The translations under genes and the position numbers were made by a program. A DNA stretch of 64,000 nt, taken from NCBI GenBank assembly GCA_964421245.1, contig CAYQVW010000001.1, forward strand, positions 42,888 through 106,887, written 5' to 3'. Position 1 is the first letter of the stretch. Each line of letters starts with the position of its first letter. The stretch comes from an uncultured bacterium (GTDB lineage: Bacteria > Margulisbacteria > WOR-1 > XYC2-FULL-46-14). The notes below the pieces were generated by a model. The model was not told where the DNA came from and ran no database searches. It saw only the letters and a list, made by a program, of their open reading frames with translations. This document shows positions 24,873 through 55,958 of the stretch, piece by piece.

Positions 24873-25464
24873 TCTGACTAGAATTCGGTTCCAGTGTCAA
24901 AATCCAGTTAACAGCCTCTAATAAGTCTTTTGCAATAAAATCAGGGCGATTGCCGTTTAGGCTTTTCTTGGCTTCTTCTCCATATCCGGTTAAAACCAGA
25001 ATTGTTTTGCAACCAGCGCGTCGGCCAGCTTCAAGATCAGATTTTTTATCACCAATCATGTACGAATCTTTTAAATCTAGGGTGTATTCTGCTGCGGCCT
25101 GGAGGAGCATTCCAGGATTTGGTTTTCTACATTCACAATCTTTTTTATATGGGTAATGTCCAAAGTCTGGATGATGAGGACAGTAGTAGATTGCATCATA
25201 GTATGCATGGTTGGCGAGCAGTTTTCTTTGCAATGTTTTATCAATCGCTTTCAACATGTCCTCTCCGTAGTGACCGCGTGCAATCCCGGATTGGTTACTA
25301 ACTACACAAACTTTTAATCCGGCATTATTAAGTAACTGAATTGCTTTTGAAGAGTTGGGGAATAGTTCAACTTTTGTATGATGATCAAGATATCCTACGT
25401 CGTGACTTATGGTACCATCTTTATCTAGAAAAACAGCTTTATCCATTAAAAATCTCCTTTTCAA
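24859..25464 (-). CDS. gmhB: D,D-heptose 1,7-bisphosphate phosphatase (HAD-IIIA)
   Basis: [11 protein letters not shown] motif I, GmhB-type zinc-cysteine cluster CPHHP...[10 protein letters not shown]. Confidence 0.8.
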
Positions 25465-26011
25465 CTATTTCACAAATAATATGAGCGATTGTTATATGTG
25501 ATTCTTGTATTCTTGGCGTATCATTTGATGGAACAGTAAGGTTAATATCAACCACTTGAGCTATTTTTCCACCACCAGATCCTAATAATCCAATATTTAT
25601 ACATCCAGCTTGTTTTCCTTCTTCAAGTGCTAGAAGTACATTTTCTGAATTACCAGAAGTTGAAAGACCGATTAGAACATCCCCTTTTTTTGCTAGTGCT
25701 TGGACTTGTCTTAAAAAGATCAATTCAAATCCAAAATCATTTCCGCATGAAGTAATGATAGAGGTATCGGTTGTCAGTGCAATTGCTGGTAATGGATTTC
25801 GATTTATCTTGAATCTATTAACAAATTCAGCTGCAATATGTTGAGAATCCGCAGCCGATCCACCGTTACCAAAGATTAGGATCTTATTTCCCGATTTTAA
25901 GGCATTAATAACTGTTTTGCTGGCCTTTTCGATTTCAGGAACTAAGCTGTTTAGAACCTTCTTTTTTACTTCTATACTTTCAGTAATTAACTTCTTTATT
26001 TCTTGTTGCAT
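25439..26011 (-). CDS. gmhA: phosphoheptose isomerase (SIS domain); start refined to internal ATG (MQQEIKK)
   Basis: SIS motif [20 protein letters not shown]; the ORF-track start at 26059 is a TTG. Confidence 0.8.
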
Positions 26012-26105
26012 AATATAATTATAACACCATATTATATGTATAACTACCGCGTTGGTCAATCCTGTTTTCTATGTTATAATTTTTATTATTCTCTGGAGGG
26101 ATTTT

Positions 26106-40074: not shown

Positions 40075-41146
40075 AGTAGATATCACAATAATAGGTGCCG
40101 GGGTTGTTGGTCTCGCGATTGCAAAAGAGCTCTCGGAAAAATATCCAAACAAAGATATAGTAGTTCTCGAAAAACACGATGCATATGGTCAGGAGACCAG
40201 TAGTCGCAATTCAGAGGTCGTTCATGCTGGAATCTATTACACCCCCGGATCAAAAAAAGCCAAGTTCTGTGTCCAGGGTAAAAAGATGTTGTGGGATATT
40301 TGTGAGAAGCATAATATTTTATTTCGTAAGCTTGGTAAGATAATTGTAGCAACAAATGAGAAAGAATTGAGGCAGCTTGAGGAATTAAAAGTTAGGGGAG
40401 AAGCAAATGGGGTAGAGGATTTAGAGATAATTGGGAAAAGTAGAATTAGGGAGATGGAACCAAATGTTAGGGCGTTAGCTGCGCTCTATTCCCCTGGAAC
40501 GGGGGTTATTGATTCTCATAGCATAATGAAATACTTCTATCAGTCTGCAAAGGATAATGGGGTGATGTTTTCTTTTGGGGCAGAAGTGATAGGGGTTAGG
40601 GGTCAGGGGATAGGGTATAGGGTTGAGCTTTCTGAATATTTTTTTGAAAGTGAAAGGGTGATCAATTGTGCTGGGCTTGGAGCAGATAAAATTGCGGCAA
40701 TGGTTGGTGTTGATTATAAGATAAATTATTTAAAAGGAGAATATTTTGCTTGTTCGAAACAAGGACTTGTGAATGGGTTGGTTTATCCAACTCCGCAAGA
40801 AGGGAATAAGTCTTTGGGGATTCATACTTTGGTTGATCCTGGTGGTAGCATCAAATTTGGTCCAAATGCTTATCCGGTTGACGAAATTGACTATAACGTT
40901 GTGGTTGAACATCGTTTGGATTTTCATAAATCCGTCTTAACTTATTTACCGGATGTAAAATTGGAAGATTTAACTCCTGATCAATCTGGTATTCGTCCTA
41001 AATTAGTTATGAAAGATGGTATAGAGCCTGATTTTATTATTAGAAAAGACCTTCCTGGATTTATTAATTTGATAGGAATAGAGTCTCCAGGACTGACCTC
41101 TGCTCCCGCCATTGCTCGACACGTTTTGACATGTTTTGACACGTAG
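40067..41146 (+). CDS. FAD-dependent oxidoreductase (L-2-hydroxyglutarate oxidase LhgO-like)
   Basis: VDITIIGAGVVGLAIAKEL dinucleotide-binding motif; 359 aa. Confidence 0.7.
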   Translation: MDKVDITIIGAGVVGLAIAKELSEKYPNKDIVVLEKHDAYGQETSSRNSEVVHAGIYYTPGSKKAKFCVQGKKMLWDICEKHNILFRKLGKIIVATNEKELRQLEELKVRGEANGVEDLEIIGKSRIREMEPNVRALAALYSPGTGVIDSHSIMKYFYQSAKDNGVMFSFGAEVIGVRGQGIGYRVELSEYFFESERVINCAGLGADKIAAMVGVDYKINYLKGEYFACSKQGLVNGLVYPTPQEGNKSLGIHTLVDPGGSIKFGPNAYPVDEIDYNVVVEHRLDFHKSVLTYLPDVKLEDLTPDQSGIRPKLVMKDGIEPDFIIRKDLPGFINLIGIESPGLTSAPAIARHVLTCFDT

Positions 41147-41155
41147 AAAGACCTC

Positions 41156-41183
41156 TTGACATTTACAGTGCTTACGGTACAAT
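41156..41183 (+). promoter_or_regulatory. sigma70-like promoter TTGACA-N16-TACAAT upstream of the glycan-locus HTH gene
   Basis: Read from sequence: TTGACA 41156-41161, TACAAT 41178-41183, ATG at 41197. Confidence 0.45.
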
Positions 41184-41196
41184 TATATACATATAT

Positions 41197-41439
41197 ATGG
41201 AAGTACGTGAAAACGAGATATATACCCTTGAAGAAACCACCTCTCTTTTAAAGATATCCCGGTCTACCTTTCTTCGTTTGATAAAAAAAGGAATTATTAG
41301 TGCATATAAAGTTGGTGGGCAGCATCGGGTTTTAGGAGCAGAGATATTAAGTTTGTTTAAACCATCGGTACAAGATCGTGCTAGGGCTGCATTTAGGAAA
41401 GTTAAAGATAAGATTAAACATAATTTAGAGTCTGTTTAG
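41197..41439 (+). CDS. helix-turn-helix DNA-binding protein (excisionase/MerR-type HTH), first gene of the glycan locus
   Basis: LEETTSLLKISRSTFLRLIKKGIISAYKVGGQHRV HTH_17-like pattern. Confidence 0.6.
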   Translation: MEVRENEIYTLEETTSLLKISRSTFLRLIKKGIISAYKVGGQHRVLGAEILSLFKPSVQDRARAAFRKVKDKIKHNLESV

Positions 41440-41448
41440 AAAGGAGAA

Positions 41449-42240
41449 ATGAGAATGTTAAAGAAAATTTGTATTTGTTTAGTTTTTTTACTGGTTTCTA
41501 ATTTTTGTTTACCGGCTATTGCACAAGTTTCTAGTTCTATACATAATAGGTCTAATTCATCCAGTTCTCTTGTCGATGCTTCAACTGAATATTTTGCTGG
41601 AGACAGGGTTTTGAGGGATAAATATAAATTAGCTTCGGGAGATAGTGTGGCTGTTGATTTAGTAATTGGTGATAATGATTTGGCTATCAAACATGTATTT
41701 GTGATTGGACCAGAGGGAACTATTTATTTCCCTAAGGTTGGAGAAATAAACTTATTTGATTTAACAATCCCTGAAGCAAAGAGCTTGGTTGATTCTCGCA
41801 TAAAAAAGGTTTTTAAGGAGAAATATAGTCTATCTTTTCGTTTGGAAGTGCCAAGGCAGGTTCAGGTTTATCTTTCCGGATCAGAAAGTAAGCCGCTCTA
41901 TGTCGCGAACAAGAGATATGTAAATATTTATGGGGAGGTTGCTAAATCAGGTAGGTTTGAATATTTGCCTGAAAAGAAATTTTCTGACTACATAAGTTAT
42001 GCAGGAGGATTTTCTCGTCAGGCGAATTCCCATGCTTGTTCTATTACTAGGAAGGGAAATAAGTACAAAATAAATGGTTCTGATGTGATATTTAATGGTA
42101 ATGAGAAAAATGACTTAGCAATTATGCCCGGGGATGTTATTAATGTTCCGAAGAATATGTTCTATTTTTCTGATTTTGCTAGTTTTGCTGCTATGGCGTA
42201 TGGTTTATTGGCTTTTTATAATACATTTTTAAAAAATTGA
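41449..42240 (+). CDS. polysaccharide export outer-membrane protein (Wza/KpsD family)
   Basis: SP; Poly_export motifs (YKLASGDSVAVDL, GDVINVPK); C-terminal amphipathic hydrophobic helix FASFAAMAYGLLAFYNTFL. Confidence 0.8.
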   Translation: MRMLKKICICLVFLLVSNFCLPAIAQVSSSIHNRSNSSSSLVDASTEYFAGDRVLRDKYKLASGDSVAVDLVIGDNDLAIKHVFVIGPEGTIYFPKVGEINLFDLTIPEAKSLVDSRIKKVFKEKYSLSFRLEVPRQVQVYLSGSESKPLYVANKRYVNIYGEVAKSGRFEYLPEKKFSDYISYAGGFSRQANSHACSITRKGNKYKINGSDVIFNGNEKNDLAIMPGDVINVPKNMFYFSDFASFAAMAYGLLAFYNTFLKN

Positions 42241-42252
42241 GGAGAAATAAAT

Positions 42253-43179
42253 ATGGACGATGAAATAAATTTAAAAGAATACATTACGGTGGTTATGAAA
42301 AATTGGAAACTGATTGTGATAATTGCGTTGGTCTTTGCAACGCTAGCTTTTATATTAAGCACTCAGCAAAAGTCGGTTTATCAGGCTAAAGCGACAATGC
42401 TGGTGCAGGGAGGGGCTGGAGCTAAAGGAGGAGGTTCCGCAGGGGGATTGGCGGCTTATGCGAGTTTAGCAGGAATTAATCTTTCCGGTGCTTCAGTAGG
42501 GTCTTATGACATAAAAAGCCTTTTAAAAAGTCGCATGGTTGCAAAAAGAGTGGTAGAAGGTTTGGATTTAAAAAACAAAATAGAAGGATGGAAAAGTCCG
42601 TTAATTAAAGAAGATGATATGGCTATGGCAGTTTCTGGAATGATAAAGCAGATAAAGTCGTCTGGCGGTATTATTGAATTGATAGTTGAATATGGCGATC
42701 CGAATTTATCGGCGGAAATTGCTAATGGCTTTGTGGATGCGTTGACTTTTGTGTGGAATCAGTTGAATTATACAGAAGCTCAAAAGCAAAGAGAGTATAT
42801 TGAAAACCAATTACCAAGAGTTGAGAAGGAACTTAAAAAAACAGAACGCAGGTTGAAGGATTATACTTTGCTTATTTCTTCTTTTGGGGATTTTTCTTCT
42901 GAGCGATCAGGAGGTATTGAGATTGATAGACTCAGGAGAGAATTGGAAATTCATAGTTCTGTTTATAAAATGCTACGGAGCCAATATGAATCTGTTAAGT
43001 TAGAAGAAGCAAAAAAGATTGTTCCTTTTTCTATGCTGGATAAAGCAAGGGTTCCTGGAGGACCAATCAACAATAAGAAGAAAACAAAAGTAATGATGGG
43101 TTTAGTGTTTGGAATATTTGTTGGATTGTTCATTGCTTTTGGTAAAGAATATTGGAATAGAAGTTGGAGAGGGAAGTAG
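42253..43179 (+). CDS. polysaccharide chain-length determinant (Wzz/PCP family)
   Basis: N-terminal IDLKEYI..W + TM, coiled-coil periplasmic region, C-terminal TM (LVFGIFVGLFIAF). Confidence 0.75.
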   Translation: MDDEINLKEYITVVMKNWKLIVIIALVFATLAFILSTQQKSVYQAKATMLVQGGAGAKGGGSAGGLAAYASLAGINLSGASVGSYDIKSLLKSRMVAKRVVEGLDLKNKIEGWKSPLIKEDDMAMAVSGMIKQIKSSGGIIELIVEYGDPNLSAEIANGFVDALTFVWNQLNYTEAQKQREYIENQLPRVEKELKKTERRLKDYTLLISSFGDFSSERSGGIEIDRLRRELEIHSSVYKMLRSQYESVKLEEAKKIVPFSMLDKARVPGGPINNKKKTKVMMGLVFGIFVGLFIAFGKEYWNRSWRGK

Positions 43180-45019
43180 AATTAAATATTTTAATAGAGA
43201 AAAAGGTGAAGCGAATATTGGCAAATTAGCTATTATTTGGTATTTTTTTCGTCCATATAAAGTCCAATTAGGTATTTTGTTATTTGTTATGTTTTTTTCT
43301 GGCCTGATGGAAATGCTAAATTTGGCTGTTTTGTATCCCATAATAAACTTTGGTCTTGATCTTCAAAATGATACTTTTATTTTAAGATCTTTTGATAAGG
43401 TGGTCAATCTTTTTGCTAATGATAACCCATTTTTTGTCTCTTGCGTTATTTTAATGATCATTACTCTGATAGCAACAGCTTTTAAAATTTTTTACACATA
43501 TTTCTCCCACAAATTAATGATAAAAATTGTAGGAGATACTCAGAAAAAGATCTTTAGTAAATATTTAACAGCAGATTATAGTTTTTTTACCCAAAACCAG
43601 CAGGGCAAACTCATTCATACTGGGACAATTGCACCTGATCATGTACTAAATATTGTTTTGTCGACAATTCGGTTTACCTATGACTCTTTGAACTCAATAC
43701 TTCTTTTTTCTTTGCTTTTGGCTATTGCCTGGCAAGGAACTATGGCATTAATATTGATTGGACTGATTTATACAATGCTCATAAAAAGGGTTCTTGAAAA
43801 AGTAATCTATAAATGTGCAGTCATTTCAAATGATGAGGATAGAAAAAAGAATGTGATTTTAAATGAGTTTATTAACGGTGTCAAGGCAATCAGGATATTT
43901 TTTACGTTAAGTGGCTGGAAGAAAAAATACGAAAGTGTTGTTGATAAAAAACTTTTTAATCAGTTAAAAATGCTAGTTGCCCGTGTAATACCAGAATGCT
44001 CTACGAGGTTTATCTTTTTTGTTTTGCTTGCTGGTGTAGGGATGTATTTAAGTCAGCAATCCCGTGGTGCGTTGATAGCGGCTATCCCGTTATTTGGGTC
44101 ATTTGCTGTAGTGGCTAACCGGTTTTTACCTTCGATACAGGTGGTAGGAAACGATGTTATGTCAATAGCGCACTCTGTGCCAAATACAAAAATTGTTTAT
44201 AATCTTCTCGTGTCAAAGATTAAGACTATTTCGGATGGGGAAAAGGTGCTGAAATTATTTGATAAGGAGATTGCTTTTGAGAGAGTTTGGTTCAGATATG
44301 AAAATATGCGAGAGTATTTATTAAAAGATGTGAGTTTTGAGATTAAAAAGAAGAAGGTAACTGCTGTTGTTGGTCCATCAGGTTCTGGTAAGACGACAAT
44401 AGTAAATCTCTTGTTAAAATTATATCAAGCAGATAAGGGTAAGATCAAAATTGATGGTACAGATATTTCTGATTATACAAATGAGTCTTTTTTGAAAAAG
44501 ATAGGTTATGTTAGTCAGGAGACTTTTATTTTTAATGATACGATAAGAGAAAATATTCGTTTTGGAATGGAAAATTGTTCAGATGAATTAATATTTGAAG
44601 CAGCAAAGCTGGCTCACGCACATGATTTTATAATGAATATGCAAGGAGGTTATGATGCTGTGGTTGGGGATGCAGGGGTAAAGCTGTCTGGGGGACAGAG
44701 GCAACGTCTTGCTATTGCGCGTGCTATGCTCAGAAAACCTGAAATACTTGTCCTTGATGAAGCAACGAGTTCTTTGGATAATATTGCGGAAAAAAATGTA
44801 CAGCAAGCAATCAATCAAGTTTCTCAACATACGACGGTATTAGTAATTGCACATAGGTTATCAACTGTTGAGAGAGCAGATAAAATAGTGGTTTTAGAAA
44901 ATGGCTTTGTTCGGGAACAGGGGGATCACAATGCATTAATGGCTCAGAAAGGTTTGTATTTCAATCTTTATACAAAGGAGGGTTGGGAAGGCGAGATGGT
45001 GACGTTACTTAGTAAATAA
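43109..45019 (+). CDS. ABC exporter, fused permease+ATPase (MsbA/Wzk-like); real start probably downstream of the annotated ATG
   Basis: Six TM helices then Walker A GPSGSGKTT, signature LSGGQRQR, Walker B ILVLDEATS; ORF-track ATG overlaps wzz by 70 nt. Confidence 0.85.
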   Translation: MEYLLDCSLLLVKNIGIEVGEGSRIKYFNREKGEANIGKLAIIWYFFRPYKVQLGILLFVMFFSGLMEMLNLAVLYPIINFGLDLQNDTFILRSFDKVVNLFANDNPFFVSCVILMIITLIATAFKIFYTYFSHKLMIKIVGDTQKKIFSKYLTADYSFFTQNQQGKLIHTGTIAPDHVLNIVLSTIRFTYDSLNSILLFSLLLAIAWQGTMALILIGLIYTMLIKRVLEKVIYKCAVISNDEDRKKNVILNEFINGVKAIRIFFTLSGWKKKYESVVDKKLFNQLKMLVARVIPECSTRFIFFVLLAGVGMYLSQQSRGALIAAIPLFGSFAVVANRFLPSIQVVGNDVMSIAHSVPNTKIVYNLLVSKIKTISDGEKVLKLFDKEIAFERVWFRYENMREYLLKDVSFEIKKKKVTAVVGPSGSGKTTIVNLLLKLYQADKGKIKIDGTDISDYTNESFLKKIGYVSQETFIFNDTIRENIRFGMENCSDELIFEAAKLAHAHDFIMNMQGGYDAVVGDAGVKLSGGQRQRLAIARAMLRKPEILVLDEATSSLDNIAEKNVQQAINQVSQHTTVLVIAHRLSTVERADKIVVLENGFVREQGDHNALMAQKGLYFNLYTKEGWEGEMVTLLSK

Positions 45020-45047
45020 ATAACTGGTTAGTATAGGAGGAATAAAA

Positions 45048-45896
45048 ATGTCTATTTATATTATTGCTGAGATTGGAATCAATCACAACGGAGATGTTAA
45101 GATTGCGAAACAATTAATTGATGTTGCTAAAATTGCTGGAGCCGATGCTGTCAAATTTCAGAAGAGGGCAATTGATCTGGTATATACAAAAGAACTGCTA
45201 GACTCAAAGCGTGAGAGCCCCTGGGGCACTACGCAGCGTGAGCAAAAAGAAGGACTTGAATTTTCACTAGATAATTACAAAGAGATAGATGCTTATTGTA
45301 AGGAAAAAGGAATTGAGTGGTTTGCATCAGCTTGGGATACTGAAAGCCAGAAATTTTTGCGGCAGTTTAATTGTAAATTCAACAAGGTTGCTTCGGCTAT
45401 GCTTGTTTATGAAGAATTACTAAAAGAGATAGCTTCAGAAAAGAAACATACCTTTATTTCTACAGGAATGACGGAAGTTGAGCAGATTGACCGTGCTGTG
45501 GAGATATTCAAGAAGGCAGATTGCTCATTTGAACTTATGCATACTGTTTCCACTTATCCTATGAGTGATGAAGATGCAAATCTTAACCGTATTAAAACAC
45601 TCCGTGATCGTTATGGTTGTGATGTGGGATATAGTGGGCACGAGGTTGGCTTAGCGGTTTCTTATGCTGCGGCAGCGCTTGGAATAACTTCACTTGAGAG
45701 GCACATTACTCTCAATCGTGCTATGTATGGTTCTGATCAGGCTGCCTCAGTTGAACCTATGGGACTCTTTCAGCTGATAGGTGCTGTGCGAAAAATTGAA
45801 AAGGCTATGGGAAATGGGAAAGTAATTATTAATCATAAGGAAGTCCCGATTGCCAAGAAACTCCGGGCACATATTCCTTTTGAATCGCATAGATAG
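45048..45896 (+). CDS. NeuB-family (N-acylneuraminate/ulosonate) synthase, short form lacking the C-terminal SAF domain
   Basis: IIAEIGINHNGDVKIAKQLIDVAKIAGADAVKFQKR TIM-barrel NeuB signature; 282 aa. Confidence 0.8.
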   Translation: MSIYIIAEIGINHNGDVKIAKQLIDVAKIAGADAVKFQKRAIDLVYTKELLDSKRESPWGTTQREQKEGLEFSLDNYKEIDAYCKEKGIEWFASAWDTESQKFLRQFNCKFNKVASAMLVYEELLKEIASEKKHTFISTGMTEVEQIDRAVEIFKKADCSFELMHTVSTYPMSDEDANLNRIKTLRDRYGCDVGYSGHEVGLAVSYAAAALGITSLERHITLNRAMYGSDQAASVEPMGLFQLIGAVRKIEKAMGNGKVIINHKEVPIAKKLRAHIPFESHR

Positions 45897-45908
45897 GGAG
45901 AATTAATT

Positions 45909-46649
45909 GTGAAAGACAAAGATGTTGTTGCCGTGATTCCAGCGCGTTCAGGTTCTAAAGGGGTTAAAGATAAAAATATTAAATTATTAGCTGGCGTACC
46001 ATTGTTAGCTTATAGTATTTTTGCGGCACGTTTAGCTGATAATATTGATCGTATAATTGTCTCAACTGATTCTGAGCATTATGCTGATATTGCTCGCCAA
46101 TACGGGGCAGAGGTGCCTTTTATTCGTCCTCAGGCAATATCTGGAGACAGAAATACTGATTATGAATTGGTCAAACATATGCTTGATTGGATGCAAAGTG
46201 AAGAGGGTTTTGTTCCAAGCTACCTGGTTCACTTGAGACCAACAACCCCGTTGCGTGATCCGGTATACATTAAGAAAGCTATTGAATGTTTAAGAAAAGA
46301 AAAGGGTGCTACCGCGTTGCGTTCATCACATGAGATGGATCAGTCCTCATACAAAACCCTTGAGGTTAAGGAAGGGTATTATAAGTGTATAGGGTCAGAG
46401 TCGTTCGATCTGGATCAAGCAAATAGACCAAGACAAGAATATGAAAAAACATATGATCCAAATGGATATGTTGATGTATATAGAAGTCACTTTGTTATAG
46501 GGAATGGCAAACTCTTAGGAGATCGTGTTCTTGCTTACATTACACCAAAAATATCTGAGGTTGATACTTTAGAAGAGTTCGAATTTCTGGAATATCAAGC
46601 TCAAAAAAACCCGGTATTGGTAAGTAGGTTTTTGAAGAAAAAAATATGA
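45909..46649 (+). CDS. acylneuraminate (CMP-nonulosonate) cytidylyltransferase family protein, copy 1 (GTG start)
   Basis: VAVIPARSGSKGVKDKNIKLLAGVPLLAYSI CTP_transf_3 signature. Confidence 0.8.
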   Translation: MKDKDVVAVIPARSGSKGVKDKNIKLLAGVPLLAYSIFAARLADNIDRIIVSTDSEHYADIARQYGAEVPFIRPQAISGDRNTDYELVKHMLDWMQSEEGFVPSYLVHLRPTTPLRDPVYIKKAIECLRKEKGATALRSSHEMDQSSYKTLEVKEGYYKCIGSESFDLDQANRPRQEYEKTYDPNGYVDVYRSHFVIGNGKLLGDRVLAYITPKISEVDTLEEFEFLEYQAQKNPVLVSRFLKKKI

Positions 46650-46658
46650 GGTGGAAAT

Positions 46659-47387
46659 ATGGATTACAGTGTTCTTAAAAATAAACGTTGTTTGATCGTT
46701 GGGGCAACAGGAGGGATTGGTCAGTGTATAGCTATGGAAATCGCTAAATATAATTGCGAATTATTTTTAACTTCAAACGAGATTAAAAAACTAAAGAAGC
46801 TAAAAGGAGAACTAGAGGCTTTGCAGGGTAAAGAATCCGTAGTTTATTATGAATATGGTGATTTAAATAAGGTGCAGGATGTTAGCAAAATTATCACGGC
46901 TGTTAGAAAAAAAATTCGTTCTGTAGACATTTTAATTAATTGTGCGGGTATTTTTGAGCTAAAATCATTATCCAATTTGAATTTGAATAATTTTAATAAG
47001 ACTTTTAACTTAAATGTTAGAGCGCCTTTTTTATTTTGCAAAGAATTTTCTAAGGATATGGTAAAAAATGGTTGGGGGCGCATTATAAATATTGCTTCTT
47101 CATCTGCGTATGCGGGATTTAAGAATACTTCTCTTTATTGTGCTTCAAAACATGCTCTTTTAGGATTTTCGCGGGCTTTACATGATGAGCTGAAAGCTTC
47201 TAATATCAGGGTTTTTTGTCTGTCTCCTGGTTCGGTAAAAACAAGAATGGGAAAAATATTAAAAGATCAAAAATTTGCTACTTTCATAGATCCTAAGGAA
47301 ATAGCTGAATATGTTGTTTTTATTAGTTCCTTTAACGGTGAAGTGGTTTCTAATGAAGTAAGGCTTAACAGGATGATAATTGAATGA
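46659..47387 (+). CDS. SDR-family oxidoreductase
   Basis: LIVGATGGIGQCIA Rossmann motif, YCASKHAL catalytic YxxxK. Confidence 0.8.
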   Translation: MDYSVLKNKRCLIVGATGGIGQCIAMEIAKYNCELFLTSNEIKKLKKLKGELEALQGKESVVYYEYGDLNKVQDVSKIITAVRKKIRSVDILINCAGIFELKSLSNLNLNNFNKTFNLNVRAPFLFCKEFSKDMVKNGWGRIINIASSSAYAGFKNTSLYCASKHALLGFSRALHDELKASNIRVFCLSPGSVKTRMGKILKDQKFATFIDPKEIAEYVVFISSFNGEVVSNEVRLNRMIIE

Positions 47388-47424
47388 TTAAAAATATTTA
47401 TTATTTTGTTGCAGGAGTTTGATA

Positions 47425-48168
47425 ATGGAAGATATTGTTGCGATAATTCCAGCACGTTCAGGTTCTAAGGGTGTCCCAGATAAAAACATAAGATTGCTGG
47501 AGGGGAAGCCGTTGCTTGCATATAGCATTGCTGCGGCCTTGCAGGTAAAATTAATCAAACGTGTTATTGTTTCAACGGATTCACAACAGTATGCAGATAT
47601 TGCTCAAAAATATGGTGCTGAAGTTCCCTTTCTCAGGCCCGCAGATATATCGGATGATGGAAGCACAGCTTACGACTTTATCAAGCACACACTAGATTGG
47701 CTTAATACTCATGAAGGGCATAGGCCTGCCTATTTCGTTCTTTTATTACCAACCACCCCATTGCGTGAGATTAGTTATATCGAGGCGGCTATCAGAAGCA
47801 TAAAAAATAATGATAAAGCTACCGGGTTGCGTTCGGTACATGAAATGTCCGAAAGTGCATATAAAACAGTCGAGATAGATGGTGGATATTTGAAGTGTGT
47901 ATGTACTGGATCGTTCGATGCGGATACAGGAAATTTGCCCCGGCAGGGATATCCGAAGACCTACCAACCTAATGGATATGTAGACATTATTAAAACCAAC
48001 TATGTTATCAAAAATGGGAAATTGTTTGGTGATCGAGTCATTGCCCATACCACACCGCAGGTTGTCGAAGTAGATGCAATGGAAGACTTCGCCTATTTAG
48101 AATATAAGGTGACAAAAGAACCAGCAATTGTTGAGAAACTATTCGCAAAAGGAAGGGATCAGTCATGA
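47425..48168 (+). CDS. acylneuraminate cytidylyltransferase family protein, copy 2 (start refined to MEDIVAII)
   Basis: IVAIIPARSGSKGVPDKNIRLLEGKPLLAYSI; paralogous to the 45909 gene. Confidence 0.8.
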   Translation: MEDIVAIIPARSGSKGVPDKNIRLLEGKPLLAYSIAAALQVKLIKRVIVSTDSQQYADIAQKYGAEVPFLRPADISDDGSTAYDFIKHTLDWLNTHEGHRPAYFVLLLPTTPLREISYIEAAIRSIKNNDKATGLRSVHEMSESAYKTVEIDGGYLKCVCTGSFDADTGNLPRQGYPKTYQPNGYVDIIKTNYVIKNGKLFGDRVIAHTTPQVVEVDAMEDFAYLEYKVTKEPAIVEKLFAKGRDQS

Positions 48169-49535
48169 GCTTTCGGTTTTCACAAACTCCAGTCAATGTG
48201 CCGCATGTGCACACGGAGTATCGTGAGATAAAAACAGCTATTCCAGCGCCGGGGACAGAAGTAGTTTTGCTTAATCTGGAAAAATATGAATCTCGCTCAA
48301 TGCACGGGCAGCTTCCTGTAGTATGGGATAGGGCAGAGGATTTCCAGGTTTATGATACGTGTGGAAACTGTTGGATTGACTTTACATCTACTATCTTTGT
48401 TGCAAATACTGGACATGCAAATCCTCTAATATTATCTGCTCTTCATAAGATTATTGATCATAAGATTCTCCATACATATACTTTCCCCAATAAGATGCGG
48501 GTTTCTTTTTTGAAGAAGTTGATTAAAACAACCCCTGATCAATTTGAGAAGGCTTTTTTGTTATCTGCTGGGACGGAAGCAACTGAATGTGCTGTAAAAT
48601 TGATGAGGATGCATGGTCAAAGCATAAGTCCAGACAAGGTTGGCATCATTTCGTTTCAGGGTGCTATGCATGGACGCACTATGGGAGCCGAAATGCTCAA
48701 AGGAGTTCCTAGTCAATCTGCTTGGATTGGGTATAAGGATCCAAATATGTATCATTTGCCTTTCCCTTATCCCTGGAAGGAATATGATTGGGAAAAACGT
48801 TTTGAGGAGGATATTCACGCTTTAGAAGAAAAAGGATTAAACTTTGATAATATTGCAGGTTTTATGATTGAGTCCTACTTGGGATGGGGGGCTGTTTTTT
48901 ACCCAGTTGCATATATAAAAGCTCTTGTTAATTTTGCAAGGAGACATAACTGTTTGATAACCTTTGATGAAATGCAAGGCGGATTTGGAAGAACCGGAAA
49001 ACTATTTGCTTATCAACATTATGATGTTGAGCCCGACCTCCTCTGTCTTGGCAAGGCATTGAGTGGTAGTTTGCCTTTGTCTGCTGTTATTGGAAGTCAA
49101 AAGATAATGGATTTGCCCGAATTTGGTTCTATGAGCAGTACTCACTCAGCAAATCCTTTATGTTGTGCTGCTGGATTGGCAAATTTACAGGCGTTAGAAT
49201 TTAGAGATTTGGTTAGAGAATCAGAAAGAAAAGGGAAAACACTACATTGTCGATTAAATGTACTTAAAGAAAAATATTCTAACAGGATTTCACATGTTTT
49301 GGGTAAAGGTTTGATTGCAGGTGTTATTTTTAAGCACCCAAAAACTGGGGAACCAGACGATCTATTTGCAAACCGGGTATGTGAAAAAGCTATGCAAAAG
49401 GGATTACTTCTTGTTCATACTGGACGAGAATCTATTAAGATTGGTCCCCCACTTACCATACCTGATGGTGCCTTAGAAGAAGGCTTGGATGTTTTTAATG
49501 AAGCCATTGCTGAGACAATTCAGGAGGTAAATTGA
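48165..49535 (+). CDS. class-III PLP-dependent aminotransferase
   Basis: LSAGTEATECAVKLMR and DEMQGGFGRTGKLFA (PLP-lysine) motifs. Confidence 0.8.
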   Translation: MSFRFSQTPVNVPHVHTEYREIKTAIPAPGTEVVLLNLEKYESRSMHGQLPVVWDRAEDFQVYDTCGNCWIDFTSTIFVANTGHANPLILSALHKIIDHKILHTYTFPNKMRVSFLKKLIKTTPDQFEKAFLLSAGTEATECAVKLMRMHGQSISPDKVGIISFQGAMHGRTMGAEMLKGVPSQSAWIGYKDPNMYHLPFPYPWKEYDWEKRFEEDIHALEEKGLNFDNIAGFMIESYLGWGAVFYPVAYIKALVNFARRHNCLITFDEMQGGFGRTGKLFAYQHYDVEPDLLCLGKALSGSLPLSAVIGSQKIMDLPEFGSMSSTHSANPLCCAAGLANLQALEFRDLVRESERKGKTLHCRLNVLKEKYSNRISHVLGKGLIAGVIFKHPKTGEPDDLFANRVCEKAMQKGLLLVHTGRESIKIGPPLTIPDGALEEGLDVFNEAIAETIQEVN

Positions 49536-49969
49536 TAAAAGATATTCGCCATATAGGGATAGTAGTTGTTGACTTGGAGATATCGCTTTGTTTTTATCGT
49601 GATCTTCTTGGGTTTCGGATTGCAAAGCAAATGGAAGAAAAAGGGGATTATATCGATAATATTTTATCGCTGCAAAATGTTAAAGTTACAACAGTTAAGA
49701 TGACTTCCCCATCTGGCCAGATGATAGAACTGTTGAAGTATCATTCACATCCAGCAGAGCAAAAACAGCGGAAAATTTGCGAGATAGGAATTTCTCATAT
49801 AGCGTGCACTGTAGATGATTTAGATATGGAGTATGAAAGACTTAAAGAGAAGGGGATTAAGTTTAATTCTCTCCCACAACTATCACCAGATGGATATGCA
49901 AAAGTTGCCTTTTGCAGTGCCCCGGAAGGTACTTTGATCGAATTAGTGGAGGTGCTAAATTTAAGATGA
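49532..49969 (+). CDS. VOC (glyoxalase/bleomycin-resistance/dioxygenase) family protein
   Basis: IRHIGIVVVDLEISLCFYRDLLGF beta-alpha-beta-beta-beta module. Confidence 0.65.
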   Translation: MIKDIRHIGIVVVDLEISLCFYRDLLGFRIAKQMEEKGDYIDNILSLQNVKVTTVKMTSPSGQMIELLKYHSHPAEQKQRKICEIGISHIACTVDDLDMEYERLKEKGIKFNSLPQLSPDGYAKVAFCSAPEGTLIELVEVLNLR

Positions 49970-50766
49970 ATAAATGTTTTAATAGTCTTACAACAGTAAA
50001 TATAGAATTAACCTCCAGATGCAACAAAGATTGTTGGATGTGTGGTAGAAGAAAAATAGATAAAGAATATCCGGAAATAGCTATGAACTATGGTGATATG
50101 GATTTCGAACTGGTTAAGAAGATAGCTAACCAATTACCAGAGGGGATAGTGGTTCAATTTCACAACAATGGCGATCCATTTCTTTATCCTAAGTTGGGAG
50201 AAGCGATTAGTCTATTTAAAAATCAAATTAAATGTGTGGATACCAATGCAAAATTAATTGTTGAGAGGGCAGATGAAGTTATAGGGAACCTTGATACTAT
50301 AACAATATCTGTTATAGAAAATGACCCGGAAGGTGATGAGCAATATGAACTGGTTAATAAGTTTTTGGAGATTAAGGGCAAGAAAAAACCTCATATGATT
50401 TATCGGTGTCTGGGGAAGGTAGATAGGACGAGATGGGAAAAGTTACCCGGAATAATTGCTACCAGGATATTACATAATCCTCTGGGGAGTTTTAAATATA
50501 CCAAAAAACCGACTGTGCCAGAAATTGGGATATGTTTGGAAATTTTAAATCATATGGCTATTGATAGATTTGGCAAGGTCTCGATATGTGTAAGGTTTGA
50601 TCCCAAGCGTTTGGGAGTGATTGGAGATGTTAATGTAGACACACTCCTAGATATTTGGAATAGCGAAAAAAGAAAAGAATGGATTGAATATCATAAACAA
50701 GGAAGAAGAGACAAGGTTGAGTTATGTAGTTATTGTCATTATTGGGGGGTATCGACAGGAAATTAA
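49966..50766 (+). CDS. radical SAM enzyme (start refined to MNKCFNS with RBS; ATGA overlap)
   Basis: ELTSRCNKDCWMCG = CX3CX2C cluster motif. Confidence 0.7.
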   Translation: MNKCFNSLTTVNIELTSRCNKDCWMCGRRKIDKEYPEIAMNYGDMDFELVKKIANQLPEGIVVQFHNNGDPFLYPKLGEAISLFKNQIKCVDTNAKLIVERADEVIGNLDTITISVIENDPEGDEQYELVNKFLEIKGKKKPHMIYRCLGKVDRTRWEKLPGIIATRILHNPLGSFKYTKKPTVPEIGICLEILNHMAIDRFGKVSICVRFDPKRLGVIGDVNVDTLLDIWNSEKRKEWIEYHKQGRRDKVELCSYCHYWGVSTGN

Positions 50767-50769
50767 TAT

Positions 50770-51648
50770 ATGGCTATAAAAGAAAAGTGCTATTTATGTG
50801 GGCCCCAAAAAATAATTAAAAGACCTGGTACTGTGCGTGATAATCCTGAACTGGAGATTTTGGAATGTGCGTCTTGCGGGTTGGTTTTTTTCTCGTCACT
50901 TGATCATATAAAAGATGGTTTTTATGAAAGTTCAGGGATGCACGGTAAGGAGATCTTGGATATTCAAGATTGGCTCAGAGATACTGAGGGTGATGATAAA
51001 CGACGGTTTAAATACCTTGAATCACTTTTGCCGAATAGTAAATTGCTTGATTATGGGTGTGGGGTAGGTGGATTTCTTCTAAATGCCAGGGAACTGACGG
51101 AGACAGCGCATGGGGTAGAACTGGAAAGTCGATTGAAAAATTATTTTCAAAATCACGGTCTTACCGTTTTTAAAAACACCTCTGACATTCCAAATGATAT
51201 TCGTGGCGGGTATGACATAATAACTATGTTTCATGTGCTGGAGCACATTCCCGATCCGAAGTCGATATTAGATGAGTTGAGTAAAATGTTAGCGGACGGT
51301 GGGCAGATTATTATTGAAGTGCCAAGCGCAAACGATGCTTTGTTAACATTGTATAGCAGTGAACCATTTTCTAATTTTACCTATTGGAGTTGTCATTTAT
51401 TCTTATATACGGCAAAAGCCTTACAGATCTTGTTTGACCAAGCTAATTTAAAGGTTAACTATATTAAGCAGATTCAAAGATATCCGTTATCTAATCATTT
51501 GCACTGGTTAGCTAATGGCAAGCCTGGTGGTCACCAAGAGTGGAACTTTCTCGATTCGCCGGAATTACATACCAAATATGAAAAACAACTTGCAGCTATT
51601 GGAAAGTGCGACACAATTATAGCAAGTGTTTCAAGGGCTGAAAAATAA
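50770..51648 (+). CDS. class I SAM-dependent methyltransferase with N-terminal zinc ribbon
   Basis: CYLCG...CASCG ribbon then LLDYGCGVGGFL motif I. Confidence 0.75.
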   Translation: MAIKEKCYLCGPQKIIKRPGTVRDNPELEILECASCGLVFFSSLDHIKDGFYESSGMHGKEILDIQDWLRDTEGDDKRRFKYLESLLPNSKLLDYGCGVGGFLLNARELTETAHGVELESRLKNYFQNHGLTVFKNTSDIPNDIRGGYDIITMFHVLEHIPDPKSILDELSKMLADGGQIIIEVPSANDALLTLYSSEPFSNFTYWSCHLFLYTAKALQILFDQANLKVNYIKQIQRYPLSNHLHWLANGKPGGHQEWNFLDSPELHTKYEKQLAAIGKCDTIIASVSRAEK

Positions 51649-52841
51649 TGCGAATGTCAATATTTAAGTTTAATGGTCTCCTAAGGAATAAAGTAGTTAT
51701 TTTTGATAATGAAAGCAACAAAATACTAAAAAATGTGGTATTAAAGGGTATTAAATATACAACTCTTCATTGTAGATGGGAAGAAATTCATATTACATTT
51801 CCGATACTATTTCTCATGTTAAAAAATGCAATGCGTTTTCTGATAAAATCGAAGGGACTAGGCATAAAGGGAATACCAAAACACAGGTGGATTGGCCGCA
51901 TTTACAAAATATATCTTTACTCTTGCATTGAATACATAAATCCAAAAGTTGTTATTACTTTTATTGATAATGAGCATAATTTTCATTGGCTTTCTAAGGT
52001 ATATAAGCGATGTGAATTTTTTGCCATTCAGAACGGTCATAGAACCGAAGGGCAGCTAAGTTTATGTGAAAAAAATTATCTTCAGAACTTTTTTTGTTTT
52101 GGTAAATATGATGAGCAGCGGTATGCCCAGTTTGGTCACGTTATTGATAAATGCTATCCAATAGGCTCTCTGAAGGCAGGGCATTATAGGTTGACTGTCA
52201 AAAAAGAAAGAGTAAAGAAGTACGATATAGCCATAGTTTCTCAATACACGCGGAGAGGATATAATCTTTATTCAGATTCACAAAGAAAAGAATTATCCAA
52301 ACAACAAATCACAAATGAAAATATATACAAAGAAACATCTGACTTGATGGATTCGTTTTTGGCTGATTATATTGATGAGTATAACCTTAGGGCAGCAGTG
52401 TTAATGAGATATCCATTGAGCTTTGAAGATGTGCGTAATTATTATGAAGAAAAATATAGGGGGAAGGCAGTTCTTTTGGGTGGAGATGTGAGGACAACGA
52501 ATAGTTATATTGTGGCAGAAGAAAGTGAGGTTTTAGTGGGGTTTAGTTCAACGCTACTTGCAGAAATGTTTGGATTAGGGAACAAAGTGTTGAGTATTAA
52601 TTTTTCAGGGAATGGTTGGTGGGTTGATTATGATCCAATGATAATGTTCACGAAACCAGACTACTCGCTCTTCAAGAAGTGTTTAAATGAGTTAAGATCT
52701 GAGCCCTATGACGAATATAGGAGGCGTACAAAAGAATACGCAACTTATTTGATGAATTATAACCCTGATAGTCCTCCCCATATGTTTATAAGAAAAAAGG
52801 TGCTGCAGTATTTAAATGAATCTGAAAAGGAGAAGATATGA
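51648..52841 (+). CDS. hypothetical protein, possibly glycosyl/ulosonate transferase (GT-B-like)
   Basis: 397 aa, no definitive motif; placement within the nonulosonate locus; QNGH / GGDVRTTNSYIVAEESEVLVGFSSTL segments are reminiscent of capsule polymerases/transferases. Confidence 0.35.
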   Translation: MRMSIFKFNGLLRNKVVIFDNESNKILKNVVLKGIKYTTLHCRWEEIHITFPILFLMLKNAMRFLIKSKGLGIKGIPKHRWIGRIYKIYLYSCIEYINPKVVITFIDNEHNFHWLSKVYKRCEFFAIQNGHRTEGQLSLCEKNYLQNFFCFGKYDEQRYAQFGHVIDKCYPIGSLKAGHYRLTVKKERVKKYDIAIVSQYTRRGYNLYSDSQRKELSKQQITNENIYKETSDLMDSFLADYIDEYNLRAAVLMRYPLSFEDVRNYYEEKYRGKAVLLGGDVRTTNSYIVAEESEVLVGFSSTLLAEMFGLGNKVLSINFSGNGWWVDYDPMIMFTKPDYSLFKKCLNELRSEPYDEYRRRTKEYATYLMNYNPDSPPHMFIRKKVLQYLNESEKEKI

Positions 52842-53284
52842 AAGAATGTGGATTAGAGATAATTAAGGCGGGGATAGCTGTTGATGATAGGGGGCAAATC
52901 CAGTTTTGTAATGAATTTGATATGAAAGAGGTGCAGAGGTTCTATATTGTTTCAAATCATCAGTCCCAATTTGTCCGTGCTTGGCATGGGCATAAAAAAG
53001 AATGTAAATACGCCTTTGTAGTTTCAGGAGCAGCCGTATTTGCGGCAGTCAGGATAGATAACTGGGATAATCCTTCCAGAGATATTCCTGTAGAACGGTT
53101 TGTTCTAAGTGAGAAAAATCCCAGGCTGTTAAAAATTCCGGCAGGTTTTGCCAATGGATTCAAAACCCTTATGCCGGATACTAAAGTGATGTTTTTCTCA
53201 ACATCTACTTTAGGTCAAAGTTCTGATGATGACTTTCGTTTTGAGTATGATTATTGGAATCCGTGGGAAGTGGAACCGCGATAA
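52838..53284 (+). CDS. WxcM-like / FdtA-like cupin (sugar 3,4-ketoisomerase-like) domain protein
   Basis: RFYIVSNHQSQFVRAWHGHKKECKYAF resembles the FdtA/WxcM C-terminal RGxHAH motif. Confidence 0.55.
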   Translation: MKECGLEIIKAGIAVDDRGQIQFCNEFDMKEVQRFYIVSNHQSQFVRAWHGHKKECKYAFVVSGAAVFAAVRIDNWDNPSRDIPVERFVLSEKNPRLLKIPAGFANGFKTLMPDTKVMFFSTSTLGQSSDDDFRFEYDYWNPWEVEPR

Positions 53285-53301
53285 TAATTGGAGGGAAATT
53301 A

Positions 53302-54735
53302 ATGCAAGATATAAATGAATCGTTTCAACTGATTCCAGCGCCTCAGTTAAAAGAGGATAATACTATTTTTGATGCTCTCAATTTTATCGAGGAGCAATAT
53401 GGAATGATTATTACTATTCTTGATAGTAGTGGCAAGCTCAGCGGTATCGCTTCACCGGGTGATTTGCGTAAAGCTATTCTTAAGGGGAATTCAGTTAATA
53501 CAAAGCTCAGTTTAGTTATGAACAAAAAACCTGTTTGTATTGAGTTTAATGAATTAAAAACCGCAGAGGATATAAATCAGCGCATTCTTGACGATTTGCG
53601 CAAGCGTTATAGCGATATGTTTATGTTGTATGCCATGGTTCCAGTTATCACAAAGGATAAAAAAGTAATGGGACTGATAAGTCTTGAGTCATTAACAAGT
53701 AGTTTTTCTGGACCCAAACTTAAATTAAACCATCGTACGGTTTTAATAGTGGGGGGAGCAGGATATATCGGTTCAGTTCTTGCACGAAAGCTGCTTGATG
53801 ATGGATGGACGGTGAGAGTATTAGATAAATTGCTTTATGGTGGAGATTCCCTCAAGGATATTAAGCATGAAAAATTTTCATTACTTCTTGGTGATGCTGG
53901 AAATATTGATGATATTGTAAGAGCTGTTGAAGGAGTTGATGCGGTTGTTTATTTGGCTGAATTGGTGGGTGATCCTGCCTGTTCTATTGCTCCACAAACT
54001 ACCTTAAAAACAAATTATTTGGCGGTTACTGCTATGGCACACCTATGCTCTCATCTTAATATAAATCGTTTTGTCTATACGTCATCTTGTAGTGTTTATG
54101 GTGCAAGCGATAATCCAGAGGATATATTGAGAGAGAATTCACCCATACATCCAGTTTCATTATATGGTCGAATGAAAGTTCGTGTTGAACAATCTATCTT
54201 GTCTGTTTGCAATTTACCTAATCCATTATTTGCACCGACAATTTTACGCTTATCTACCGTTTTTGGTAACTCCTATCGTCCTCGTTTTGATTTAGTTGTC
54301 AATACTTTTGTAAAGAATGCTATACAGAAAGGTAAGATTGAGATATTTGGTGGTAATCAATGGAGGCCAAATGTGCATGTTCGTGATGTGGCGGGAGCTA
54401 TAACTAAGGTCTTATGTGCGCCAGCTGAAGATGTGCGAGGGCAAGTATTCAATGTTGGTAATAATGGATTGAATTATACAATTAACGATTTGGCCGATAT
54501 AGCCAAAGAAGTGTTTCCTTCTGTAGAAATTATTAAAAAGACTGGTTTGACTGACCCAAGAAACTATCGTGTTGGTTTTGATAAGATTAAAGATGTTTTA
54601 GGTTTTGAGACCAAGATGGACATAAAAAAAGGAATGCTTGAGATTAAAGAAGCTTTTGAACGTAACGAATATGGTGATTTAGATAACCCAAGGTATAGTA
54701 ATTTTCAAAGAATGCAAGAACTAAACCTTGTTTAA
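53302..54735 (+). CDS. CBS-pair + NAD-dependent epimerase/dehydratase (extended SDR) fusion (start refined to MQDINESF)
   Basis: N-terminal CBS domains; VLIVGGAGYIGSVLARKL Rossmann motif; YGRMK catalytic YxxxK. Only candidate for the 4,6-dehydratase step. Confidence 0.7.
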   Translation: MQDINESFQLIPAPQLKEDNTIFDALNFIEEQYGMIITILDSSGKLSGIASPGDLRKAILKGNSVNTKLSLVMNKKPVCIEFNELKTAEDINQRILDDLRKRYSDMFMLYAMVPVITKDKKVMGLISLESLTSSFSGPKLKLNHRTVLIVGGAGYIGSVLARKLLDDGWTVRVLDKLLYGGDSLKDIKHEKFSLLLGDAGNIDDIVRAVEGVDAVVYLAELVGDPACSIAPQTTLKTNYLAVTAMAHLCSHLNINRFVYTSSCSVYGASDNPEDILRENSPIHPVSLYGRMKVRVEQSILSVCNLPNPLFAPTILRLSTVFGNSYRPRFDLVVNTFVKNAIQKGKIEIFGGNQWRPNVHVRDVAGAITKVLCAPAEDVRGQVFNVGNNGLNYTINDLADIAKEVFPSVEIIKKTGLTDPRNYRVGFDKIKDVLGFETKMDIKKGMLEIKEAFERNEYGDLDNPRYSNFQRMQELNLV

Positions 54736-55942: not shown

Positions 55943-55958
55943 AAAAAGGAGGAAAAAT

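Follow-up and report, generated by a model that had tools for sequence, protein, structure and literature searches.

The five genes at positions 45048 to 49535 of the window, by which we mean the whole stretch of 64,000 nucleotides analysed here (contig CAYQVW010000001.1, from an uncultured WOR-1 bacterium of the Margulisbacteria), encode a NeuB-family synthase without SAF domain (sNeuB), a cytidylyltransferase (CT1), a short-chain dehydrogenase/reductase (SDR), a second cytidylyltransferase (CT2) and a class III aminotransferase (AT3). The calling of open reading frames (ORFs) and Pfam searches confirmed that this module, recognized in a preliminary description of the stretch, is real. By comparison with related loci, the five genes belong to a cassette that is widespread, promiscuously transferred and not characterized as to its product, and the window carries a new, merged variant of it. 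The best explanation of the set is that it represents the front half of a nine- or ten-gene horizontally acquired operon, extending from 45048 to about 52841 within a surface-polysaccharide region. As SDR and AT3 replace each other elsewhere, they are read here as two exits from one intermediate. In the merged cassette they may lead to two related sugars activated by cytidine 5'-monophosphate (CMP), one amino and one hydroxy (epimeric), a reading that we adopt tentatively and at a little less than an even chance. Merger of the CT-AT3 and CT-SDR versions of the cassette would explain the duplicated, divergent cytidylyltransferase (CT).

Exchange of SDR and AT3 among related loci

A one-genome-per-species scan gave 353 relatives of sNeuB, and the best 80 were retrieved and analysed. 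ORFs of these loci were called and labelled by BLASTP against the window proteins and nine further queries, using identity thresholds of our own, and representatives were searched against Pfam. Orthologues of AT3 were found in 28 of the 80 loci, orthologues of the SDR in five and a class IV aminotransferase in 16, and in none of the 80 were AT3 and SDR present together. Both occupy one and the same slot, downstream of one CT and upstream of a gene for a VOC protein, and a CT of the same subfamily was detected in 32 of the 33 loci carrying AT3 or SDR. The VOC gene was found in 29 loci, each time with AT3 or SDR. The SDR orthologues (44-66% identity) were arranged in the order CT-SDR-VOC in five of five loci, and AT3 was absent from all five metagenome loci that a search with the SDR retrieved. 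The class IV aminotransferase was accompanied in 12 of 16 loci by a different CT subfamily (about 30% identity). Oxidation by the SDR followed by transamination had been suggested earlier as one possibility for the module. With the two enzymes being alternatives in 33 cassettes and together in 0 of 80 loci, this suggestion was not supported as a general logic. AT3 cassettes lack this SDR, so that their carbonyl would be obtained in some other way.

The gene order of the window is sNeuB-[CT1-SDR]-[CT2-AT3]-VOC, the sole arrangement among the 80 loci and the five metagenome loci to carry both CT-SDR and CT-AT3. The 4-nt overlap of AT3 and VOC, typical of AT3-type loci, is retained in the window, and the SDR/VOC junction of SDR-type loci is swapped for a 31-nt spacer and CT2. 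The locus in a Scalindua record (L029:10001-19416) contains sNeuB, a distant CT, a class IV aminotransferase, a cassette CT, AT3 and VOC. As judged from its gene order, it is a parallel double unit, in which each tailoring enzyme is provided with its own CT. In most AT3- and SDR-type loci, VOC is followed by a Methyltransf_11 gene of 220-250 aa (for example, L025:13400-14122 and L036:12753-13445). This gene is missing after VOC in the window, where VOC abuts the gene for a radical S-adenosylmethionine (SAM) enzyme (49969/49912).

On its best NCBIfam model, PRK05769, AT3 scored 293.1 against 552. Its closest solved relatives are the transaminases for gamma-aminobutyrate (GABA), ornithine and acetylornithine, the GABA transaminases being best. 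The class III family (PF00202) is different from the DegT family (PF01041), as had been pointed out before, and the PseC of the window (54758-55942) belongs to the latter. A search for an aminoglycoside-type class III sugar aminotransferase gave none named among the 60 solved relatives of AT3 listed of 93 (E <=1e-30). The VOC protein showed weak matches to methylmalonyl-CoA epimerase and glyoxalase I.

CT1 and CT2 are 57% identical over 244 residues by BLASTP and 56% identical in the multiple alignment. The closest foreign CTs, from other phyla, share 65% identity with CT1 and 66% with CT2, and among 36 foreign CTs, 13 for CT1 and 14 for CT2 are nearer than the two are to each other. CT1 and CT2 are therefore not recent tandem duplicates. 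The possibility raised earlier, that they are such duplicates with identical specificity, was thus excluded for its first half; for the second half, no partner-specific column was detected. The earlier remark that two CTs separated by one gene are unusual was borne out, as two CTs of the same subfamily were found in none of the 80 related loci and in none of the five metagenome loci. Of 51 columns conserved to at least 94% in the other 36 CTs, 50 are retained in CT1 and all 51 in CT2. A maximum-likelihood tree was constructed for 38 cassette CTs and six outgroup CTs, leaving out CT ORFs shorter than 200 aa and other distant CTs. CT1, which sits in the cassette CT-A clade, and CT2 were both placed inside one 18-member subclade (support 94/84), which is internally unresolved. 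One CT lineage per partner was considered and rejected, because SDR-adjacent CTs formed no clade (four changes, with 83 of 500 shuffles equally low). The simplest history of the duplicate CT is that an SDR-type cassette merged with one of the AT3 type.

Gene fusions were also considered. The four closest longer relatives of CT2 (P0001 to P0004, 46-51% identity) are fusions of CTP_transf_3 and Aminotran_3. In P0001 the CT part is N-terminal, the same order as in CT2-AT3, and residues 271-728 are 59% identical to AT3. These fusions suggest that CT and AT3 catalyse consecutive or cooperating steps, in an order that the fusions do not give. In other fusions the CT is joined with a HAD phosphatase, class IV aminotransferase, Methyltransf_23, SIS or TIM-barrel domain, and the CT-methyltransferase fusions were found in L016 and P0009. 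By their domain content, the fusions would place these parts in a single pathway with a CMP-sugar as its end product. The CT-SDR fusion P0057 was rejected as Rosetta-stone support for the SDR, since its SDR differs from that of the cassette (22% identity over 156 residues). Separately, the CT2 relatives P0005 and P0013-P0021 were found fused to cytidylate kinase (PF02224) and Maf-type flagellin glycosyltransferase (PF01973) domains.

Synthase, back ends and the proposed pathway

Pfam detected only the NeuB domain in sNeuB (residues 23-258) and no SAF domain, and the chain ends 22 residues past the barrel. The second NeuB homologue of the window, PseI (61339-62373; 35% identity to sNeuB), has both NeuB and SAF. 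The scores of sNeuB stay below the equivalog cut-offs for NeuB_NnaB (TIGR03569, 246.1 versus 399.65) and PseI (TIGR03586, 181.3 versus 340.25), and its closest solved relative is 6ncs, with a chain of 290 aa. On comparison with NeuB of Neisseria meningitidis (NmNeuB; 2wqp numbering), sNeuB was found to retain 12 of 12 metal, phosphoenolpyruvate (PEP) and catalytic residues (E25, K53, Q55, K129, S132, S154, Y186, S213, H215, E234, H236 and D247); E25, E134, E234, F112, F288 and R314 are the NmNeuB residues named in PMC8208679. These 12 positions are conserved in 78-81 of 81 orthologues, most of them in all 81, and the concern that the synthase might be inactive or pseudogenized by loss of metal or PEP ligands was thus not substantiated. 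Substitutions were observed at T110 (Ser), F112 (Trp) and N184 (Ser). In place of the SAF domain is a tail with conserved E..KLR.H, in which E265, L272 and R273 are invariant and H275 is present in 80 of 81 sequences. Altogether, 70 of 282 positions are invariant among 81 sequences from many phyla. As judged from this alignment, sNeuB is clearly under strong constraint and intact, yet it is no canonical NeuB. In an excerpt of PMC8208679, a potentially catalytic role is given to E25, E134 and E234, and the SAF domain is said to contribute R314, a conserved C-terminal catalytic residue. SAF-less NeuB homologues form an environmental group in that excerpt, which gives no assay for them.

For the radical SAM enzyme, BtrN was the best solved match both by sequence (6.2e-09) and by a profile of 23 sequences (2e-12). 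BtrN was also the top fold for the predicted structure (pLDDT 77.4), with a Foldseek value of 5e-10 and a TM score of 0.57-0.71, at 17% identity in the structural alignment. EpeE (an epimerase), DesII, anSME, SpeY and BlsE were the next-best folds. Seven Cys residues are invariant among the 23 sequences, C19, C23 and C26 in the CxxxCxxC motif and C190, C208, C254 and C257, and three of the four auxiliary Cys lie within segments aligned to BtrN by the profile. BtrN is described in an excerpt of PMC10337720 as oxidizing an alcohol to a ketone and as carrying one Cys4 auxiliary cluster, located in a short C-terminal domain.

The back end of the cassette was compared in the 53 loci whose downstream sequence extends for 8 kb or more; for 50 of these, the upstream sequence is also 2.5 kb or longer. 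The radical SAM enzyme was found in 18 of the 53 loci, a xylose-isomerase-like TIM barrel in 23, both in none and neither in 12. In the 50-locus set, all 21 loci with the TIM barrel also carry FabG-like SDRs. Among 23 complete AT3 loci, the BtrN-like enzyme was present in 12, and the TIM-barrel protein with other SDRs in 10. Because they never occur together, the radical SAM enzyme and the TIM barrel look like interchangeable back ends. On this gene content the cassette is modular, as far as synteny can tell: sNeuB is constant, the middle part pairs a CT with an aminotransferase or a reductase, and the back end is of either of two types. Orthologues of the cassette methyltransferase (50-71% identity) were found in many loci. 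The LA_1612-family protein has hypothetical Lept_O_ant_chp1 clusters as atlas neighbours and is encoded close to the synthase also in L021 and L063; our guess is that it is a candidate transferase.

As to the precursor, a GmhA-like SIS gene was located beside the synthase in 13 of 50 loci and a HAD gene in 20. In the TIM-type loci, a KdsC-like HAD phosphatase was detected in 16 of 21 and the GmhA-like SIS in 11 of 21; in the radical SAM-type loci, the corresponding numbers were 0 of 18 and 1 of 18. Neither Pfam nor NCBIfam models detected a HAD protein within 43109-52841, and SIS is likewise missing from the module of the window. In L031 and L048, the gene immediately preceding the synthase encodes a CT-HAD fusion. 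Elsewhere, the window contains an ADP-heptose operon encoding GmhA-like, GmhB-like HAD and HldE-like (PfkB plus cytidylyltransferase-like) proteins. Its GmhA shares 53% identity with the SIS protein of the L025 cassette, whose gene precedes the synthase. From these relations, D-glycero-D-manno-heptose 7-phosphate as the product of GmhA, giving a ten-carbon acid, would be a reasonable guess for the substrate and is our leading one; mannose 6-phosphate, as for Kdn, is the main alternative. We know of no pathway for ten-carbon ulosonic acids from D-glycero-D-manno-heptose 7-phosphate.

sNeuB is 69-86% identical across the 80 loci, which come from Omnitrophota, Planctomycetota, Desulfobacterota, Nitrospirota, Elusimicrobiota, Bacillota, Prochlorococcus, Pelagibacteraceae, Actinomycetota and many others; by the titles of their records, carriers of the cassette span more than 15 phylum-level groups. 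Among 40 relatives of the host organism, sNeuB was found in three, at 66-73% identity and all three class-level kin only, and the SDR in none. An identity of up to 86% in other phyla against 66-73% in three of 40 relatives indicates horizontal transfer. In full-text literature searches no paper on this gene set was found.

The pathway that we propose is inferred at every step from protein families, synteny and fusions. sNeuB would condense PEP with an aldose from central or lipopolysaccharide (LPS) metabolism, most likely a sugar phosphate, to yield a 3-deoxy-2-ulosonic acid. The BtrN-like radical SAM enzyme would then convert one hydroxyl into a carbonyl, using neither O2 nor NAD, and AT3 would aminate this carbonyl or, alternatively, the SDR would reduce it. 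The VOC protein might adjust a neighbouring centre, the methyltransferase would methylate the product, and the NeuA-like cytidylyltransferase would form the CMP-sugar for the surrounding surface polysaccharide. If extended to the individual genes, the keto intermediate formed by the radical SAM enzyme would pass through AT3 and then CT2, or through SDR and then CT1, to give two displayed CMP-ulosonic acids, possibly of ten carbons from heptose 7-phosphate; in this full form the proposal is unlikely to be correct in every part. An excerpt of bioRxiv 10.64898/2026.04.20.719630 reports CMP-linked ulosonic acids with a ten-carbon marker fragment in Magnetospirillum and does not assign their origin or pathway; we claim no link to the cassette.

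A number of observations weigh against two exits from one intermediate, or against parts of that reading. At the position of NmNeuB E134 (sNeuB residue 118) the window protein has Met, and the 81 sequences have 75 Met, five Leu and one Ser. Window PseI, 8h2c and 1vli have Glu there and 6ncs has Asp, and no conserved acidic residue near this position was seen in the conservation string of the 81 sNeuB sequences. With this Glu being potentially catalytic according to the excerpt of PMC8208679, the chemistry of sNeuB may differ from that of NeuB. Between the six SDR-partnered and the 12 AT3-partnered CTs of the same subclade no separating column was found, so that CT1 and CT2 may be isofunctional and one of them perhaps baggage of the merger. 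BtrN-like folds include epimerases, dehydratases and decarboxylases, and on the structural model "dehydrogenase" may stand for the closest match only. As the radical SAM-type cassettes are devoid of the phosphatase and mostly of SIS, the idea of a sugar phosphate or heptose rests on the TIM-type loci and on the organism's own GmhA. The module genes bear no compositional seam or mark of recent import in GC content overall or at third codon positions (GC3): GC3 is 0.25-0.36, versus 0.24-0.31 in the housekeeping genes of the window, and in GC and GC3 the pairs CT1-SDR (0.28, 0.25) and CT2-AT3 (0.36, 0.30) are both near the housekeeping range. Finally, further hybrids may exist beyond the best 80 of the 353 relatives.

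The same observations bear on several other explanations. SDR and AT3 could act in sequence on one sugar, the SDR oxidizing it, possibly as CMP-sugar, and AT3 aminating it, or the two could modify two positions; one product would result, and the second CT would be redundant. The two genes lie two genes apart in the same operon, a CT directly follows the synthase and the partner is not reflected in any CT residue, as expected for an early CT acting on a common intermediate, and the CT-AT3 fusions are compatible with AT3 acting on a CMP-sugar. However, SDR and AT3 were together in none of the 80 loci (33 cassettes) and none of the five metagenome SDR loci, AT3 cassettes do without this SDR as the source of their carbonyl, and no aminotransferase occupies the slot in SDR cassettes. 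A BtrN-like enzyme is moreover already present in the window, and it accompanies AT3 in about half of the complete AT3 loci. We thus regard sequential tailoring as unlikely. That the merger is real and only one branch matters, with one CT (with or without its partner) retained as redundant baggage by chance or for dosage and a single sugar formed, is quite unlikely in our estimation. In line with it are the lack of a partner-specific CT signature, the intermixing of SDR- and AT3-partnered CTs in the tree, and the occurrence of the arrangement only once among 85 loci; both CTs nevertheless keep the conserved columns (50/51 and 51/51), the SDR and AT3 genes are of full length and closely spaced in the operon, and the host-like composition implies that the genes have not just arrived.

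Two more explanations concern single enzymes. CT1 or CT2 might be the missing PseF for the Pse genes located downstream, as their scores of 132 and 147 bits on the PseF model are far above the 32 bits of the third CT of the window, CT3, and no protein of the genome reaches the cut-off. This CT subfamily, however, travels with sNeuB and AT3 or SDR in 32 of 33 loci, many of them without Pse genes nearby, and CT3-like genes stand inside Pse-type clusters elsewhere, such as L060; we consider this role improbable. Inactivity of sNeuB, or the formation of a small metabolite instead of a glycan sugar acid, would agree with the change of E134 to Met and with the loss of SAF and thereby of the equivalents of NmNeuB F288 and R314, given that the excerpt of PMC8208679 names E134 as potentially catalytic and R314 as conserved catalytic. 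Such an outcome is very improbable in view of the 70 invariant positions, metal and PEP residues included, the substitute tail with its invariant Arg, the nearly constant adjoining CT, and the location of the gene in polysaccharide loci that also encode glycosyltransferases, exporters and flippases.

Two exits from one intermediate thus remain the reading that we adopt, and the window then offers a natural experiment, having CT-SDR and CT-AT3 side by side behind one synthase. Sialic-acid-like sugars shape the recognition of bacteria by phages, predators and immune systems, and the carriers of the cassette include genomes of Prochlorococcus and Pelagibacteraceae. To our knowledge, only a handful of routes to such sugars are known, those for N-acetylneuraminic acid (Neu5Ac), legionaminic acid (Leg), pseudaminic acid (Pse), 3-deoxy-D-glycero-D-galacto-nonulosonic acid (Kdn) and 3-deoxy-D-manno-octulosonic acid (Kdo). 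The merged cassette allows one to ask about competition between aminotransferase and reductase, CT specificity, anaerobic formation of a carbonyl by a radical SAM enzyme, and a NeuB homologue without SAF and E134.

Layout of the operon and its surroundings

The five front genes are separated by gaps of 12, 9 and 31 nt and, at the last junction, overlap by 4 nt, and none of their products reaches an NCBIfam equivalog cut-off. For CT2, an ATG at 47425, 7 nt downstream of AGGAG in the intergenic sequence, is the likelier start. The preliminary description had placed the unit at 45048-49535. All five genes are located there on the forward strand, and the end of the unit had to be moved, since it also includes the genes for the VOC protein, radical SAM enzyme and methyltransferase (49532-51648). 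Scanning of 41000-57000 for promoter-like and terminator-like sites gave 56 and 10, respectively, versus 55.3 and 9.3 expected from shuffles, and no internal unit boundary was detected above chance in this region.

Features of the module and related genes, with positions in the 64,000-nt window
Product	Positions	Strand	Length	Match
sNeuB, SAF-less NeuB-family PEP-condensing synthase	45048..45896	+	282 aa	Pfam NeuB (PF03102), 233.7 bits (gathering score 22.1)
CT1, NeuA/PseF-like cytidylyltransferase, SDR partner	45909..46649	+	246 aa	CTP_transf_3 (PF02348), 84.2 bits
SDR, classical	46659..47387	+	242 aa	adh_short, 165.8 bits
CT2, second NeuA/PseF-like cytidylyltransferase, AT3 partner	47419..48168	+	249 aa	CTP_transf_3, 92.2 bits
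AT3, class III (GABA-AT / acetylornithine-AT-like) aminotransferase	48165..49535	+	456 aa	Aminotran_3, 294.8 bits (gathering score 30.5)
VOC / glyoxalase-fold protein	49532..49969	+	145 aa	Glyoxalase, 61.7 bits
BtrN-like Twitch radical SAM enzyme	49912..50766 (likely start 49966)	+	266 aa from likely start	Radical_SAM and SPASM
SAM-dependent methyltransferase	50770..51648	+	292 aa	Methyltransf_23, 83.3 bits
LA_1612-family protein, function not assigned	51648..52841	+		TIGR04441, 96 bits (below cut-off of 150); no Pfam match
ATP-binding cassette (ABC) exporter, MsbA/PglK-like, directly upstream (context)	43109..45019	+		ABC_membrane and ABC_tran; below all equivalog cut-offs
GmhA (sedoheptulose-7-phosphate isomerase-like), housekeeping	25439..26059	-		SIS_2, 98.4 bits

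Wza-like, Wzz-like and ABC exporter genes precede the module. Downstream are PseC and PseI, both above cut-off, a PseG-PseH fusion, and WbuX, HisH and WbuZ for acetamidino formation. The proposal of a second ulosonate module, separate from these Pse genes, was supported. Of the "PseI/PseF set" that had been assigned to the downstream region, PseI was verified and PseF was not, as the candidate, CT3 (56633-57376), scored only 32.6 bits on the PseF model (TIGR03584). CT3 is a KdsB/SpsF-like CTP_transf_3 protein with 6oew as its best solved relative, and a CT3-like gene is included in the Pse-type cluster of L060 in the order PseC ... CT3 ... PseI. In the whole genome, which is 95% complete, the PseF model matched only CT2 (147.4 bits), CT1 (132.3 bits) and CT3, all below the cut-off of 205.7, and neither PseB nor PseF was found above cut-off. 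The roles of PseB and PseF may be filled by CT3 and by a fusion of a CBS-domain protein with an SDR epimerase/dehydratase (53254-54735).

LpxC, an LptA-like gene and the ADP-heptose operon are present in the genome (window 20351-26059). KdsA, KdsB and KdsC were not found above cut-off in the 95%-complete genome, and WaaA gave no match at all, so that the LPS may lack Kdo. The module was considered as a substitute for the missing Kdo pathway and rejected in this role, because WaaA is missing too and sNeuB is present in only three of 40 relatives.

Some other genes of the window were noted. After PseI, the region 62358-63998 encodes a sulfotransferase-family protein and then the start of a PPDK_N/PRK05849-like protein, which presumably resembles the glutamine kinase that serves O-methyl phosphoramidate synthesis in Campylobacter; decoration with sulfate or phosphoramidate may be possible with these genes. 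Two large ORFs of 600 and 918 aa (7833-12367) gave no family match or a weak beta-helix match only, and for a 933-aa protein (36295-39096) the sole Pfam match was a small RelA_SpoT domain at residues 574-680.

Comparison with known systems

With the pathways for Neu5Ac, Leg and Pse (NeuB/NeuA, LegI/LegF and PseI/PseF) the cassette shares a NeuB-family synthase followed by a CTP_transf_3 protein, and the compared NmNeuB residues are kept. It differs from them in that the synthase has no SAF domain, has Met for E134 and misses the equivalog cut-offs. The cassette also lacks the conserved enzymes acting on UDP- or GDP-GlcNAc (dehydratase, DegT aminotransferase, acetyltransferase and hydrolysing epimerase), and its AT3 or SDR, VOC protein, Twitch radical SAM enzyme and methyltransferases are foreign to those pathways.

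The phosphate route to Neu5Ac and Kdn is another system for comparison. Bacteroides thetaiotaomicron is said to possess a Kdn-9-phosphate synthase and phosphatase. In an excerpt of PMC3438082, a NeuB-phosphatase fusion of Leptospira interrogans is read by its authors as an animal-like phosphate route. The related loci resemble such a route in the pairing of the synthase with a KdsC-like HAD (16 of 21 TIM-type loci), in the CT-HAD fusions and in SIS (13 of 50 loci). The window module is unlike it in carrying neither HAD nor SIS, and amination or reduction, a radical SAM step and methylation are not found in the routes through Kdn-9-phosphate and Neu5Ac-9-phosphate.

In butirosin biosynthesis, the aminotransferase BtrS is reportedly of the DegT type. 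The likeness to this system is found in BtrN as the top match, in the same Cys pattern (CxxxCxxC plus Cys4) and in an aminotransferase encoded alongside. The identity is, however, only 17%, the substrate would be an ulosonic acid and not an aminocyclitol, and the partner is of class III. For Kdo8N of Shewanella, the alcohol oxidase KdnB works with the aminotransferase KdnA. The cassette would be alike in concept, in that a hydroxyl of a 3-deoxy-2-ulosonic acid is oxidized and the product then transaminated to give an amine. It is unlike in its parts: Pfam detected no iron-type alcohol dehydrogenase among the 28 proteins scanned (36295-63998), the oxidant would here be the radical SAM enzyme, and the synthase is of the NeuB type and not the KdsA type.

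Table 5 of PMC4481668 includes an SDR of about 250 aa, the "flagella modification protein PtmA", beside the CMP-nonulosonate synthetase LegF in Leg loci of Plesiomonas, Vibrio and Campylobacter. By this described layout only, the cassette is similar, its SDR adjoining a CT. In contrast to that pair, the SDR of the cassette is interchangeable with an aminotransferase and is then followed by the VOC protein.

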